A stretch of DNA of 64,000 nucleotides, taken from positions 74,532 to 138,531 of the forward strand of contig DBFBAP010000011.1 in the NCBI GenBank assembly GCA_048245415.1, written 5' to 3'. How positions within the stretch are numbered: position 1 is the first letter of the stretch; each line of letters opens with the position of its first letter. Shown here in pieces: positions 49,795-61,446 of this stretch. The stretch is from Collinsella sp. (GTDB taxonomy: Bacteria > Actinomycetota > Coriobacteriia > Coriobacteriales > Coriobacteriaceae). The notes below the pieces were generated by a model, which had not been told where the DNA came from, did no database searches, and saw nothing but the letters and a program-made list of their open reading frames with translations. Position numbers and translations under genes: made by a program.

Positions 49795-49808
49795 AAAGCC
49801 TCCGCAGG
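49795..49808 (-). terminator. Distal half of the split ftsH terminator hairpin (plus T-tract)
   Basis: The minus strand reads CCTGCGGAGGCTTT followed by TTCTTTTG. It is complementary to 61433-61446. Confidence 0.7.
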
Positions 49809-49824
49809 TTTAGACGGGTGCTCG

Positions 49825-49836
49825 TAAGAAAGTAAT
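49825..49836 (+). repeat. Left subterminal inverted repeat of the element (TAAGAAAGTAAT)
   Basis: Exact reverse complement of 61405-61416. Confidence 0.8.
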
Positions 49837-49887
49837 TCACTCAAAATTACACTTACGGCATCTGTCAGACGGGATTGGGTAAATGAA

Positions 49888-49933
49888 ATATGCTGGACAT
49901 GGTTGATTTTAACCGTGTCCAGCATATTTTTTT
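49888..49933. terminator. Terminator downstream of the XRE gene
   Basis: ATATGCTGGACA / TGTCCAGCATAT stem followed by TTTTTTT on the + strand and TTTCATTT on the - strand. Confidence 0.75.
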
Positions 49934-49935
49934 GC

Positions 49936-50778
49936 CTATTTGCGTTTTCTTTTCCCTTTTCCGTGGGTCATATTGGTTTTCCCTCGTTGGTTAATAGAGG
50001 GTTTCAGGTGTTTGGACAGTTTCAAAACCTCTATTAGATTTACAAACTGCTCCATCGTGATCGCATCATAGTCAATACCAAAGGTTGCGAGGAAAATGCG
50101 GGCCTGCTTTTCCGCATTGCTGCCTTTGTAGTTCGTGGCTTCCTGCAAACTCTTTTGCACATCCAGCGCCGGAGAATGGCTGTCCGCAGTGGTTGCATCA
50201 TTTTGATGGGCTTCCCGAATATCCCGAAGGATCAGTTTCAAATCGTCAGAAATAACATGGCAAAAATACTCGTCCTCTTGTATTTGTGCAAGTTCCAGTG
50301 TCCGCAGATACAGATCATTTTCCGTTTCTCCCTGCTGCATCAGTACCATTTGACGAACGGCTTGCAGTACAGCGTTCATATCGCTAATCCGCATATCAGC
50401 GATCCGATCTACATAAATCTCCGCATCCAGCATCATTTTCTGAAAATCATGGTGACTGATAATTTCCGACAGCAGCCGGGGGTTGAATTTCCCGGCTTTC
50501 AGAACATCAATCGCATCATCACTCAGGTGCAGGGCACTCAGCTCTGTGTCTGAGTGATTTTTTTGTTCTGACACCCCTAACAGATAATCCGTAGTCACAT
50601 GATAAAACTTTGCCAGTGTGACGATGGCAAAAGGGCTTATGTCCTTATAATCATCATTCTCGTATTTGCCGAGCGCAGATTTGGAAAGCCCGGTCTGGTC
50701 GGCCAGCTGTTCCAAGGTAAGTCCGTGCTCCACCCGCAAATCCTTCAATTTTTCTTGAATAGTTAAGGTCGTATTCAT
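49936..50778 (-). CDS. XRE-family HTH regulator with a large uncharacterised C-terminal domain
   Basis: IQEKLKDLRVEHGLTLEQLADQTGLSKSALGKYEND HTH_3 block, followed by about 210 aa with no recognised family. GGAGG precedes ATG 50778. Confidence 0.8.
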   Translation of the reverse strand: MNTTLTIQEKLKDLRVEHGLTLEQLADQTGLSKSALGKYENDDYKDISPFAIVTLAKFYHVTTDYLLGVSEQKNHSDTELSALHLSDDAIDVLKAGKFNPRLLSEIISHHDFQKMMLDAEIYVDRIADMRISDMNAVLQAVRQMVLMQQGETENDLYLRTLELAQIQEDEYFCHVISDDLKLILRDIREAHQNDATTADSHSPALDVQKSLQEATNYKGSNAEKQARIFLATFGIDYDAITMEQFVNLIEVLKLSKHLKPSINQRGKTNMTHGKGKRKRK

Positions 50779-51373
50779 GCCAAGCCTCCCCACCGCTCTA
50801 TTTCTTTTATTATAACACAGCTTGTCCATAAGCGTGGAAATTGCTGCTTTTTCAGAGCCTTTTCCATCCTTTTGGATATACGGGAATGGTCATGTTTTTT
50901 CGCTAAAATGTACTTGTCGCAAGACTCCGTAGCTTGAAAAGTACATGACCGTCCGAATGGGATATGTTCTCCGGCGAAGTATCGCCACGACATGAGCGTA
51001 CCAAAGAGAACAAAACGCTGGGGTGAGATTCCCGGGCAGGAACGGCATTCGGGAAAAACGGCGCTTAAAAACGCAGGCAAAAATCAATCCATGTGAAATC
51101 AGCGAACAAACTGCAATTTTAGTATTGCTACCCACACCAAAAAGCGTTGCACCGTACAGCATACACAGTACATCGTTCCGTGTGGATATTCGCTGTTTGG
51201 CTTGATTTCGCACAAACCAGCAAAATGGAAAAGCGGGGGCTGTGAACAGGGCATCACAAGCCAAAATTCCAGTTTGAAATTGAGTTTTAGCAAAACAAAG
51301 CTTTGCAGCAAATGGAGTTTATCACGGAATAGATTTTGTTCGCCGCAGAGCAAACAAAACAGGAGGACTTTTT

Positions 51374-51598
51374 ATGAGCGATCATGAGAATTACAGGAAC
51401 GAGATCAAAGCCTACATTGTCAGGGCTGGCATGACCATGAGCGAGGTAGTGGAGGTTTTGGCTGACGAATACGGATGGAGCAGCAGCGTCCCCAACCTGT
51501 CCGGGAAATTAAAGCGCGGTTCTTTACGCTATGGCGAAGCGGTGGAGCTGGCAGATGTGCTGGGGTATGACATTGTGTGGCAGAAACGGAGGAAATAA
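51374..51598 (+). CDS. Small putative DNA-binding protein (74 aa)
   Basis: A strong RBS AGGAGG lies 7 nt upstream. The segment [48 protein letters not shown] looks HTH-like. The family was not recognised with confidence. Confidence 0.6.
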
Positions 51599-59023: not shown

Positions 59024-59037
59024 GGAGGATTTCAAAA

Positions 59038-59658
59038 ATGGAACTCAACTGGAAAGAGGATCATAACCTCATAAGGAAACTCGCAAAAATACTTCTCGGT
59101 GATACGCTGCCCAATGGTAAGCCTGTAAGTTCAATCATATTGCTTGATGATGCTGCACGGGCTGAATTGCAGCGGTGGGCAAATATGAGTGATGCGGAAT
59201 TTGTAGCCGCACAACTCAGCGGTGATTCCATCCACATTGATGTGGATGATGTCATTAGACAACTGGAAGAAAAGTATGCCCTTGATCCACAGTTGCTCGA
59301 TGAGTTGCTTTCGGTTTTTGATGCAGATGATTTGGAACTTTTGGAGGAAATCAGTCGCTGGGAAGATTCTGACCATGACGAACCAACGGAATATTTTTTC
59401 TCCAATCCTGATCCCTATTTCAAACCTGAACCGCTGCCGCCTGACCGTCCCAGACACAATTTCTGGTTTGACGAGACTGGACATATCCGTGTGAAGAATC
59501 CATCTGCTTTCTGGCTGCCGGAGTTCACTTTACAGCGTGAGATCGGCGGCACCATTTACACCATCACGGGCAGCTATGACGGGACAGAAACGCTGGATAG
59601 AAAGATGGAGCGCATTCTGGCTGAAAAGTTTACAGAAAATACGGAGGATGATGAATGA
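59038..59658 (+). CDS. Hypothetical acidic protein (206 aa)
   Basis: AAGGAGG precedes ATG 59038. The C-terminal block [26 protein letters not shown] resembles short conserved tails seen next to large serine recombinases in clostridial elements (from memory, low certainty). Confidence 0.6.
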
Positions 59659-59735
59659 CAAATACCGGGAATCTTGGTAAAATAGAAGCAACCAATCCTG
59701 TACTGACAGTTGCCCCTTTGAAGGAGGATACAGAA

Positions 59736-61373
59736 ATGTTACGGGCAACTGAAAAAATCACCGCACTTTATTGCCGTCTCTCTCAAGAGGATGCCAACGA
59801 GGGCGACAGTAATTCTATCACCAATCAAAAGGACATCCTGCTCCGATACGCAAAAGAGCACCGTTTCCCGAATCCAACATTTTTTGTGGATGACGGATAC
59901 AGCGGTACAAACTATGACCGCCCCGGATTTCAGCAGATACTGTCAGAAATCGAGGCAGGAAAAGTGGCTGTGGTGCTGTCGAAAGACCTTTCTCGGCTGG
60001 GACGAAATTCCTCGCTGACTGGCTTGTACATCAATTTTACTTTTCCTAAATATGGTGTGCGCTATATCGCCATCAACGACCACTTTGACACAATTGATCC
60101 CAACAGCACCGACAACGATGTTGCGGGAATCAAAAACTGGTTCAATGAGTTTTTTGCCAAGGATACCAGCCGCAAAATCCGTGCGGTACAGAAGGCCAAG
60201 GGCGAGCAGGGCATCCCGCTGACAACCAATGTCCCCTTTGGCTACCGCAAAGACCCGGAGGATCGAACAAAGTGGGTCGTGGACGAGGCAGCCGCTCTTG
60301 TGGTCAAGCGCATCTTCAAACTGTGTATGGAAGGCCGGGGGCCGATGCAGATTGCCAAACTCTTGCAGGCAGAACAGATGCTCAACCCTACCGCCTATAA
60401 GAGGAGAGAGGGCATTAACACCCCAAGTCCTGAAACCGCTGATCCGTACCACTGGAACCCCAATACCGTTGTTCATATTCTGGAACGACGGGAATACACC
60501 GGCTGTACGGTTAATTTCAAGACCTACACCAACTCCATCTGGGACAAGAAGCAGCGGGAAACACCCATTGAGAAGCAGGCGGTATTCTACAACACCCATC
60601 CGGCTATCATTGAGCAGGAAGTCTTTGACAAGGTGCAGGAGATCCGCAAGCAGCGCCACCGAAGGACAAAAACCGGAAAGAGTAGCCTGTTCTCCGGCAT
60701 GGTTTACTGTGCTGACTGCGGGGCAAAGATGCGCTACTGCACCACCAACTACTTTGAGAAGCGGCAAGACCATTTTGTATGCGCCAGCTACCGCAGCAAC
60801 ACAGGAACCTGTTCGGCCCATTTCATCCGGGCAGTTGTACTGGAAGAATTGGTCTGGATGCACATGAAAACAGTAATCTCCTATGTAACCCGGCATGAAT
60901 CCCATTTTCGGACAGTTATGGAGCATAGACTCCGGCTGTCCAGTGAAGAAGCTGTCCGGGGATACAAGAAGCGTCTGGCGCAGGCAGAACGCCGTCTTGG
61001 GGAACTTGACCGGCTGTTTATCCGTATCTATGAGGATAATGTGGCCGGGAAACTTTCTGATGAACGGTTTGCACTGATGAGCAAGACCTATGAGGACGAG
61101 CAGGCGCAGCTTAAAGTGGAAATCCAGACCTTGCAGCAGGAAATCGAAGTACAGGAACGACAGATTGAAAATTTGGAGCAGTTCATCCAGCGGGTACACA
61201 AATACGAGGATTTGCAGGAAATGACCCCTTACGCCTTGCGGGAGCTTGTCAAGGGAATCTACATCGAAGCGCCTGACAAGAGCAGCGGGAAACGCAGACA
61301 GGGCATCCGAATCTCCTATGACCTTGTGGGCTTTATCCCCGTGGACGAACTGATGAAACAGGAAACGGCATGA
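59736..61373 (+). CDS. Large serine recombinase (TnpX-like integrase/excisionase)
   Basis: [22 protein letters not shown] catalytic Ser block, [10 protein letters not shown], a recombinase domain, a zinc-ribbon-like CADCGAKM...[14 protein letters not shown] and a coiled-coil C-terminus. GGAGG precedes ATG 59736. Confidence 0.9.
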
Positions 61374-61404
61374 CCGAAGCCATGCCGTTCCTGCAAAAAG
61401 CAAT

Positions 61405-61416
61405 ATTACTTTCTTA
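61405..61416 (-). repeat. Right subterminal inverted repeat of the element
   Basis: ATTACTTTCTTA is the reverse complement of 49825-49836. Confidence 0.8.
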
Positions 61417-61432
61417 TGACCCCCGACCATTC

Positions 61433-61446
61433 CCCGCGGAGGCTTT
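61433..61446 (-). terminator. Proximal half of the split ftsH terminator hairpin
   Basis: The minus strand reads AAAGCCTCCGCGGG, starting 11 nt after the ftsH stop. It pairs with 49795-49808. Confidence 0.7.

Follow-up and report, generated by a model that had tools for sequence, protein, structure and literature searches.

An integrative mobilizable element of probable clostridial provenance in the loop of the ftsH terminator hairpin of Collinsella sp.

How does a block of 11.6 kb with a composition unlike that of its surroundings come to lie between an aminotransferase gene and ftsH in a Collinsella chromosome, and what determined the place of its insertion? The question is raised by a stretch of 64,000 nt from Collinsella sp. 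(assembly GCA_048245415.1, contig DBFBAP010000011.1, positions 74,532 to 138,531 of the forward strand), which was analysed as a whole and is referred to here as the window. A preliminary description of the same DNA had proposed a mobile element of Firmicutes character between 49795 and 61446, with an abrupt change of composition at both borders. The latter is borne out by the GC content along the window, which drops from about 0.56-0.62 to 0.40-0.50 at 49.75 kb and goes up again at 61.3 kb; the element has 46.8% GC compared with 60.0% for the remaining window, and within the 64 kb there is no second low-GC block of such kind. The explanation favoured here, that the block is an intact integrative mobilizable element (IME) with its own integration module and att sites, is put forward with high confidence, which applies to the account as a whole, i.e., to the origin of the IME, its integration, target choice, insulation and spread.

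The borders are marked by two 14-mers, AAAGCCTCCGCAGG (49795-49808) and CCCGCGGAGGCTTT (61433-61446), which form an inverted repeat complementary at 13 of 14 positions, the single odd position being a G-U pair on the ftsH sense strand. The right hairpin half ends 11 nt from the ftsH stop codon (61458-60), behind the left half the minus strand continues with TTCTTTTG, and a 12-nt repeat, TAAGAAAGTAAT, at 49825-36 returns as its exact reverse complement at 61405-16; each of these statements, all made in the preliminary description, was verified. By our own arithmetic about 300 pairs of 13/14 inverted repeats are to be expected by chance in 64 kb, so that such a repeat is not significant alone and the comparative test is the decisive one.

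The exact FtsH protein was therefore looked up in public assemblies, and five contigs (L001-L005) were obtained. L001, L002 and L004 are island-free, with the aminotransferase gene about 90 nt after ftsH; L005 is island-free as well and ends just within the start of the aminotransferase gene, while in L003, the fifth contig with an identical FtsH, the end of the contig coincides with the junction. Read along the sense strand of ftsH, the intact site of L001, L002, L004 and L005 reads AAAGCCTCCGCGGGG-AA-ACCTGCGGAGGCTTTTTCTTTTG, which is the empty site that had been predicted for island-free relatives (AAAGCCTCCGC-short loop-GCGGAGGCTTT). The right junction of the window agrees with this site through GGGGAA, the left junction from AAACC, and the only bases common to both are AA, corresponding to TT on the plus strand of the window; the crossover is thus located at TT, with a left copy at 49810-49811 and a right copy at 61430-61431. 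TT is one of the four dinucleotides (GA, TT, AC, CG) considered initially, and the opinion that the choice cannot be fixed is superseded by the empty-site alignment. The element consists of positions 49812-61431, 11,620 bp with one TT copy counted. The interval first given does contain it, the outer 15-17 nt on each side being host DNA, namely a hairpin half on either side plus, on the left, the TT copy. The exchange left the pattern of a 2-bp crossover: each junction has one copy, no more of the target is duplicated, and taking the element out restores the empty site exactly.

The host part of attL (49787-49809, minus strand) comprises the B arm (49795-49809), which on the ftsH sense strand forms the 3' side of the terminator hairpin, and the U-tract TTCTTTTG, and is identical to the 3' half of the terminator in L001, L002, L004 and L005; the host part of attR (B' arm, 61432-61446, minus strand) is the 5' arm of the hairpin on the sense strand and identical to the 5' half in the empty-site contigs. 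In the intact site the two arms are predicted to pair as a stem of 14 bp that begins 11 nt after the ftsH stop and is closed by a GAAA loop, with UUUUUCUUUU behind it (minimum free energy -38.6 kcal/mol for 81 nt, z -4.7). With its GC-rich stem-loop and U-tract just 3' of a stop codon, the empty site has the predicted form of an intrinsic (Rho-independent) terminator, and the earlier proposal that the joined halves make up such a terminator with the element in its loop agrees with the intact hairpin in the four contigs. The element contributes the P' arm at its left end (AGACGGGTGCTCGTAAGAAAGTAAT, 49812-49836), kept at the left end of 24 related elements, and the P arm at its right end (ATTACTTTCTTATGACCCCCGACCA, 61405-61429), kept at the right end of 60; the P' arm forms an imperfect inverted repeat with the right end (18 of 25 positions by manual count, including the exact 12-mer). 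The host arms of attB match at 13 of 15 positions around the crossover (manual comparison), and attP and attB are each an imperfect inverted repeat around the crossover, as in the large serine recombinase family, where such repeats measure about 40-50 bp. The flanking host genes are ftsH itself (61458-63593, minus strand; Pfam FtsH_ext, AAA and Peptidase_M41), encoding the same protein as in the empty-site contigs and with its own terminator serving as attB, and on the left a class I/II aminotransferase gene (48464-49747, minus strand; Pfam PF00155), which directly follows ftsH in the empty-site contigs.

The 4-5 nt of the arms beside the crossover (49812-49815 and 61425-61429, and the same positions in L009-L080) vary strongly, with ACCA, GCCA, CTCT, CCGA and CCCA on one side and AGAC, AGGC, TGGC and ACAC on the other, even with 97-99% identical recombinases, the remaining arm being nearly invariant. 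Register slippage was considered as the cause of this variation; it would upset the half-site spacing.

The integration module is represented by a large serine recombinase of 572 residues (59655-61373, plus strand), composed in order of the Pfam domains Resolvase (PF00239, 6.5e-22), Recombinase (PF07508, 5.6e-22), Zn_ribbon_recom (PF13408, 1.7e-14) and, at the C-terminus, DUF4368 (PF14287, 8.7e-19, residues 496-561). A spacing of 57 nt separates its gene from the right end, in the window as in the relatives. The enzyme had been called TnpX-like, which is justified by the domain architecture with DUF4368; with 37% identity to an annotated TndX and less than 48% to the best plasmid-borne relatives, it does not fall into the Tn4451 family. 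By homology to other large serine recombinases, dimers would bind attP and attB, cut all four strands with 2-nt overhangs at TT, rotate the subunits and religate the ends, the orientation being set by the non-palindromic TT. In the present case the recombinase would have joined attP (...ATTACTTTCTTATGACCCCCGACCA-TT-AGACGGGTGCTCGTAAGAAAGTAAT...) with the intrinsic terminator of ftsH at TT in the hairpin loop, an exchange that would have parted the two stem arms by 11.6 kb and left one TT per junction. Inferred are thus the chemistry of strand exchange, by this homology, and also recognition of sequence rather than structure, terminator replacement, mobilization and present-day activity. After excision, the attP joint of the circle would read ATGACCCCCGACCA-TT-AGACGGGTGCTCG and the repaired attB GCAGGTTTCCCCGC; TndX and TnpX are reported to need no directionality factor (PMC5704250). 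In metagenome ERZ28595877 the junctions are where both the contig with ftsH (L003) and a contig made up of the element only (L006) come to an end, which fits a mixture of filled and empty sites, or an element present in several contexts, and is no proof of excision.

From where did the element come? A scan of a genome collection with the recombinase yielded 401 relatives. Almost all of the best 80 belong to Oscillospiraceae and other Clostridia, including the genera Lawsonibacter, Flintibacter, Intestinimonas, Negativibacillus, Gemmiger and Faecalibacterium, and one of them is the bacillus-class Granulicatella seriolae (98% identity). Recombinases with 97-99% identity occur in Oscillospiraceae, and over the full length of 11.6 kb the DNA of the element is 97.1% identical to a Lawsonibacter sp. 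locus (L010) and 97.8% identical to another Oscillospiraceae genome (L011), whereby the donor among Firmicutes suggested at the outset is confirmed; the element-only contig L006 is 100% identical to the window element. On these sequence identities, the element appears to have moved from the gene pool of Oscillospiraceae (Clostridia) into the chromosome of Collinsella (Actinomycetota). The clusters to which the flanking proteins belong bear source names that indicate Collinsella as the host. A plasmid origin was rejected, as no DNA match was found among 72,556 plasmid records. Two further family members occur in bins of non-Firmicutes phyla, one labelled Bacteroides uniformis (L058) and one labelled as a metagenome-assembled genome of Spirochaetaceae (L085); they could be binning errors or further cross-phylum transfers.

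The backbone common to the relatives corresponds to element coordinates 1-2438 on the left and about 7135-11622 on the right, and in other relatives variable cargo sits between the resolvase gene and the candidate origin of transfer (oriT): an Eco57I-like restriction-modification system in L017, TM2, SPFH and DUF6591 membrane proteins in L013, and zinc-ribbon proteins in L020. A Gemmiger genome (L019, 7635-11778) carries a 4.1-kb internally deleted derivative of the same restriction-modification-carrying element, which retains segments 1-1156, 2737-3136, 5974-6459 and 9518-11622 with both ends and the large recombinase, and has no relaxase; by position, its internal segments are parts of the methyltransferase and Z1 genes, and it is inserted at a 10-bp terminator-like hairpin.

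Is the ftsH terminator a dedicated site or one of many? The conserved element ends were located in all retrieved loci, where the right end adjoins 60 and the left end 24 different flanks. Nearly all of these resemble halves of GC-rich hairpins with T-tracts, as exemplified by L038 (aaaaatcccgtgctca-TT...TT-tgagcacgggattttttt). Sites were reconstructed for the 16 insertions with both ends available, and a dyad of at least 9 bp centred on the crossover was present in 12 of them, in comparison with 3.3% of 20,000 random host positions (P ~3e-15). Between +8 and +27 of the right flank, a stretch of 6 nt with at least five T was present in 48 of 60 cases compared with 6.5% of controls, and the crossover dinucleotide at the right junctions was TT in 50 and TC in 7 of the 60. 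Outward from the crossover the half-site consensus reads nGGcCGGGG-nn-TTTTT, with G in 80-93% at +7/+8 and T in 80-92% at +13 to +15, and its inner part resembles the element's own arms, TGGcCGGGGGTCATAAG... and AGACGGGTGCTCGTAAG.... A single Flavonifractor genome (Flavonifractor sp. HCP28S3_F3) carries two copies at two different sites (L079 and L080). When a weight matrix was trained on 82 Firmicutes half-sites alone, with the window excluded, the top site among the 52,342 positions of the reconstructed empty window was the ftsH terminator. Many independent insertion sites are thus demonstrably terminator-like in sequence, and we conclude from the flanks that the recombinase of this clade is multi-targeting and not ftsH-specific, its predicted target class coinciding with intrinsic terminators. 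The attB of the clade may be described as degenerate and dyad-symmetric, with a half-site like a GC-rich terminator stem with flanking A and T tracts, and the ftsH terminator was probably chosen as a good local match.

With regard to the statistics, stem-only and T-run-only measures were preferred, since a criterion that asks for a T-run outside the stem misses sites in which A and T tracts have paired and so count as stem. A first hairpin control (minimum free energy fold, at least 7 bp) was too permissive, accepting 5.9% of random sites, and was replaced by the dyad measure. An assignment of host-gene direction at the sites by the longest open reading frame (ORF) was discarded as unreliable owing to spurious antisense ORFs in GC-rich flanks; in the window this rule selected a 767-residue antisense ORF, not ftsH. 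As a separate observation, Intestinimonas sp. HCP28S3_D6 harbours two family members at different terminator-like sites in one genome (L018 and L042).

What becomes of transcription once the terminator is split? The preliminary description stated that the element removes the ftsH terminator. The host hairpin is indeed split, but the element brings along a strong terminator just within the left border and, near the right one, a conserved hairpin. The former (49886-49929, plus strand, terminator scan) is bidirectional, with a 20-bp stem and seven T on the plus strand, and also ends the XRE gene on the minus strand; it faces transcription coming in from the left flank. A hairpin with a T-run on the plus strand occurs about 75-120 nt inside the left end in every subfamily, the stem being a different one in each of five subfamilies (energies between -25 and -39 kcal/mol, z between -6.5 and -10), and the retention of position and form while the sequence was replaced argues for selection. 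At the right end, a conserved hairpin in the ftsH-sense RNA spans the stop codon of the recombinase gene (61362-61391, minus strand; terminator scan and fold); its loop is UUCG, its tail CUGUUUCAUC, and a transcript reading through from ftsH would encounter it as the first strong structure. Across 30 relatives 94% of its cells are paired; in 7 sequences a synonymous change of GCA to GCG is compensated in the non-coding arm (A-U to G-C), and the ftsH read-through strand pairs G with U at a position that is an A-C mismatch on the other strand. Both end structures would probably protect the element against transcription running in from the host and make up in part for the split terminator. In the Collinsella copy the ftsH transcripts enter from the weaker end, and partial read-through antisense to the recombinase gene is plausible.

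The left end holds a further conserved feature, the subterminal motif ACGGCATCTGTCAGRCGGGRTTGG (49848-49875; same position in L010-L086), 45-70 nt inside the end in every subfamily, also where the recombinase is only 70% identical; CGTAAG...AGTAAT/ATTAC...CTTACG, a short inverted repeat, lies next to it. The idea that the left end contains another half-site in inverted orientation (ATTACACTTACGGCATCTGTCAG...) was discarded, as shuffled sequences resemble the right arm equally well; the motif has no significant similarity to that arm.

Several points weigh against this account of integration and insulation. The attP joint or excised circle, sought as a variable-gap pattern, was not found in JGI metagenome contigs, IMG/VR or the retrieved loci, assemblies in general rarely keeping such joints. 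The best register of the weight matrix is 1 nt off the true crossover, which itself ranks fourth, and the right half-site of the ftsH terminator matches the matrix weakly. Four of the 16 reconstructed sites (L011, L015, L022, L032) are without a clean central hairpin. The empty site of the window alone was directly verified, the Firmicutes attB sites being reconstructed from flanks. Finally, the tail of the right-end hairpin is U-poor and its conservation is mostly sequence identity with one compensatory pair, so that its role as a terminator is uncertain.

It may be argued that the recombinase reads DNA structure, i.e., a cruciform or hairpin formed at the palindrome or on single-stranded DNA, and would accept any stable terminator hairpin with TT in the loop. 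That the sites share structure far more than sequence, with strong central dyads and unrelated stems, and that the crossover always lies within the loop, speaks for such a mechanism. It is nevertheless improbable, as the half-sites carry positional sequence information, for which a mere reader of structure would have no use: the G preference at +7/+8 holds, and the T-run stays fixed at +13 to +15, despite the variable lengths of the natural stems. Besides, the inner half-site resembles the element arms, a matrix that knows sequence only puts the ftsH terminator at the top, and the four sites just named have no good dyad. Characterised large serine recombinases bind duplex half-sites.

Recognition of sequence by a multi-targeting recombinase also has to be set against three more conventional possibilities. 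A single-site integrase with a dedicated attB downstream of ftsH, the match to a terminator being incidental, would agree with the position 11 nt after the ftsH stop and with the probable recurrence of the same insertion in a second metagenome (L003, L006); this is highly improbable in view of 97-99% identical recombinases beside dozens of unrelated flanks in other genomes and of the two different sites within the Flavonifractor genome. Hardly more credit can be given to an assembly or binning chimera of a Clostridia contig with a Collinsella contig. Contigs in independent metagenome assemblies do break exactly at the junctions (L003, L006, L007), yet this is what a sample with filled as well as empty sites, or with the element in several contexts, should give; a false join of contigs would neither fall precisely within a hairpin loop nor leave two bases, and no more, in duplicate, nor would removal of the insert yield the known empty site, and L006 extends one base past TT at each end, both bases agreeing with the window junctions. 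Lastly, the insertion might have been mediated by the small resolvase-type recombinase (51555-52211), a serine recombinase within the conserved left backbone, in place of the large one. There is scarcely any likelihood of this, since subfamilies whose left ends have no detectable DNA similarity to the left backbone of the window retain the same ends together with the large recombinase, the deletion derivative L019 lacks the resolvase stretch and still has the large recombinase and both ends, and the right end is always found at a fixed distance from the large recombinase gene.

Several unrelated systems likewise insert at or near terminators or palindromes, among them class C group II introns, Tn7 at the glmS terminator, and IS1397 and ISKpn1 in repetitive extragenic palindromic (REP) sequences, the group IIC introns inserting after the hairpin and not in the loop. 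The outcome is similar, as genes are spared and sites are available in almost any genome, but the machinery (a reverse-splicing ribozyme with reverse transcriptase, TnsABCD, and DDE transposases, respectively) is unrelated to a serine recombinase. Closer at hand is TnpX, whose target half-sites are reported to resemble the joint of its own element, a similarity also seen here; in contrast to the TT found here, however, the crossover in Tn4451 and Tn5397 is GA, and the cargo of Tn4451 is catP in place of restriction-modification. Tn4451 and Tn4453 of Clostridium have been described as IMEs moved by a single large serine recombinase of the DUF4368 type with low target specificity (PMC5704250), and the present element has a single recombinase of this type at one end, too. 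The relaxase of Tn4451 was grouped with MOBV1 (PMC12084326), whereas that of the element is of the MobQ type. Taken together, the TT crossover, the MobA/MobL-MobQ relaxase in place of the Mob/Pre (MOBV) relaxase TnpZ, the 37% identity to TndX and the lack of a DNA match among the plasmid records led us to reject membership in the Tn4451/Tn4453 family.

The recombinase shares its domain architecture, including DUF4368, with the multi-targeting clade of TndX/Tn5397, TnpX/Tn4451/Tn4453, Cp36, Pc01 and Enc9, and as in the DUF4368 clade studied by Durrant et al. 2022 (PMC10083194), near-identical recombinases occur at many sites with a duplicated 2-bp crossover. One multi-targeting integrase of that study also has a TT core (PMC10083194). 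The example target described there is AT-rich, in contrast to the GC-rich terminator hairpins with flanking T-tracts reported here, and neither version of the paper mentions terminators, hairpins or palindromes (PMC10083194). With respect to mobilization, the closest counterpart is the superfamily of MOBQ2 IMEs in Faecalibacterium, in which DUF3847 (PF12958) co-occurs with MOBQ2 relaxases (PF03389) (PMC12084326). The same module, a PF03389 relaxase with the DUF3847 gene immediately upstream, is present here, as judged by gene families; Oscillospiraceae is also the family of most relatives of the element, and defence and resistance cargo is alike. Terminators as integration sites are not described for the MOBQ2 IMEs (PMC12084326), and the present copy resides in an actinobacterial host.

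The locus itself is a further member of a known element class. Multi-targeting serine integration into terminator loops throughout a clade, by elements that bring replacement terminators with them, appears to be a variant not described before; a literature search gave no description of serine recombinases or IMEs that target terminators, its coverage of subscription journals being thin and priority elsewhere possible. Going one step further, it may be proposed that the clade uses terminators as a generic, phylum-independent attB, with crossover in the loop, half-sites of a G-run and a T-tract at fixed distance, and replacement terminators that make the insertion nearly neutral, a generalization for and against which we would lay equal weight. 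If it holds, it would explain the very recent jump from Clostridia into an actinobacterium, and would amount to a natural 'safe-harbour' integrase system of a kind not yet described for serine recombinases. As a single locus the element is of an ordinary kind, and its value lies mainly in a clean, comparatively verified cross-phylum transfer, an 11.6-kb element being 97-98% identical in Collinsella (Actinomycetota) and Oscillospiraceae (Bacillota). Target choice by multi-targeting DUF4368 recombinases is poorly understood, yet these enzymes are under development for genome engineering. The roughly 60 natural sites point to a simple rule, namely terminator hairpins with TT in the loop and half-sites of G-run plus T-tract. 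Provided that this rule is correct, the wide spread and tolerance of the elements would be explained, since all bacteria have terminators and insertion there leaves genes whole; neighbouring genes would be expected to experience polar effects, here read-through from ftsH antisense to the recombinase gene; and the recombinase would represent a broad-host-range integrase with predictable, low-cost landing sites.

What does the element carry? The left backbone begins with an XRE-family helix-turn-helix regulator (49936-50829, minus strand; Pfam HTH_3, 2.8e-13), 280-297 residues long depending on the start codon (280 in L006), followed by an ORF for a 74-residue protein (51374-51598, plus strand) with weak, sub-threshold Pfam matches, called as a gene in L006, and by the small serine recombinase of the resolvase/invertase type (51555-52211, plus strand, 218 residues; Pfam Resolvase, 3.6e-31). 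It ends about 36 nt after the stop codon of the latter, which places the boundary of backbone and cargo at element coordinate 2438. The cargo comprises four genes on the plus strand, encoding a C5 cytosine DNA methyltransferase (52411-53520; Pfam PF00145, 1.1e-76; PADLOC MTase_II, 4e-116), a type II restriction endonuclease of the NgoFVII family (53533-54594; Pfam RE_NgoFVII and RE_NgoFVII_C; PADLOC REase_II, 3.5e-108), a Z1-domain or type II 'helicase-domain' protein (54591-56486; Pfam Z1, 9.6e-28; PADLOC Helicase_II, 1e-240) and the very-short-patch repair endonuclease Vsr (56509-56934; Pfam Vsr, 8.9e-34; PADLOC Vsr). With methyltransferase, endonuclease and Vsr in one operon, it has the makeup of a predicted type II restriction-modification system with Vsr, which probably aids retention and defence. 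The motif GCSGC, the recognition sequence of NgoFVII, is found 2.3 times per kb within the element compared with 7.6 times in host DNA, a difference largely due to GC content.

The conserved mobilization module has at its left edge a candidate oriT (56950-56995, minus strand), an inverted repeat TACAGGGT-TT-ACCCTGTA followed by TAG and AAGTGCGCCCT, the last of which presumably fits the MOBQ nick-region consensus. Next come a DUF3847 protein as the relaxase partner (57240-57548, plus strand; Pfam PF12958, 6.4e-34) and a MobQ-type (MobA/MobL) relaxase (57551-59023, plus strand; Pfam PF03389, 5.2e-71; NCBIfam MobQ). ORF callers put the start of the relaxase at GTG 57692, whereby the region of the catalytic tyrosine is lost. 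The in-frame sequence upstream of this codon, ALFHFHVTQIKRSAGQSAVASAAYRSG, is kept across the aligned relatives, its first 50 nt being identical in all six and the rest in the two that reach that far. As the missing N-terminus is in frame and conserved, the relaxase, read from a non-ATG start, is intact including the catalytic-tyrosine region. Translation most likely begins at ATC 57551, immediately behind the stop codon of the DUF3847 gene; an alternative non-canonical start is ATA 57545, which overlaps that stop codon. Between relaxase and large recombinase, ORFs indicate a 206-residue protein (59038-59658, plus strand), whose stop overlaps the recombinase start codon and for which no family match was obtained in Pfam (run on a longer ORF of 241 residues), NCBIfam or PADLOC. 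In relatives with about 70-92% identical recombinases the DNA similarity begins in the 3' third of this gene (element coordinates ~9525-9730), and its product is a candidate accessory factor for the recombinase. No family of type IV secretion systems or coupling proteins was detected in Pfam (11 of 12 genes), NCBIfam (10 genes, Vsr left out) or PADLOC (7 genes). Transfer would proceed by means of the MobQ relaxase, the DUF3847 protein and the neighbouring candidate oriT together with a helper conjugative element. Along these lines, the mobilization module and restriction system ascribed to the island in the preliminary description are both verified in gene content by Pfam, NCBIfam and PADLOC.

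Apart from the element, the window contains ordinary host genes such as that for the small RNA of the signal recognition particle (3312-3407, minus strand) and tRNA-Ser(TGA) (5696-5785), the latter with no island attached in the window. Near the left border, a 23-bp perfect palindrome, TTGATTGGGGACAGACTTAAATG-(12 nt)-CATTTAAGTCTGTCCCCAATCAA (49711-49768; -51.8 kcal/mol, z -9), extends over the annotated start codon of the aminotransferase gene (49747). It is present in the empty-site contigs as well and thus represents host, not element, sequence; a role as operator or attenuator is conceivable, and the aminotransferase may in fact start further downstream. A different element, with a large serine recombinase of 599 residues, was noticed in L001 (9014-11154, corresponding to about 47390 in the window), one of the Collinsella contigs whose ftsH site is empty. 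L001 diverges from the window right after CTACGGTTTC, in the 3' end of a tRNA U5-methyltransferase (rumA-like) gene adjoining a PHP phosphatase gene; rumA has been reported as a target of serine recombinases in streptococcal IMEs (PMC5704250).

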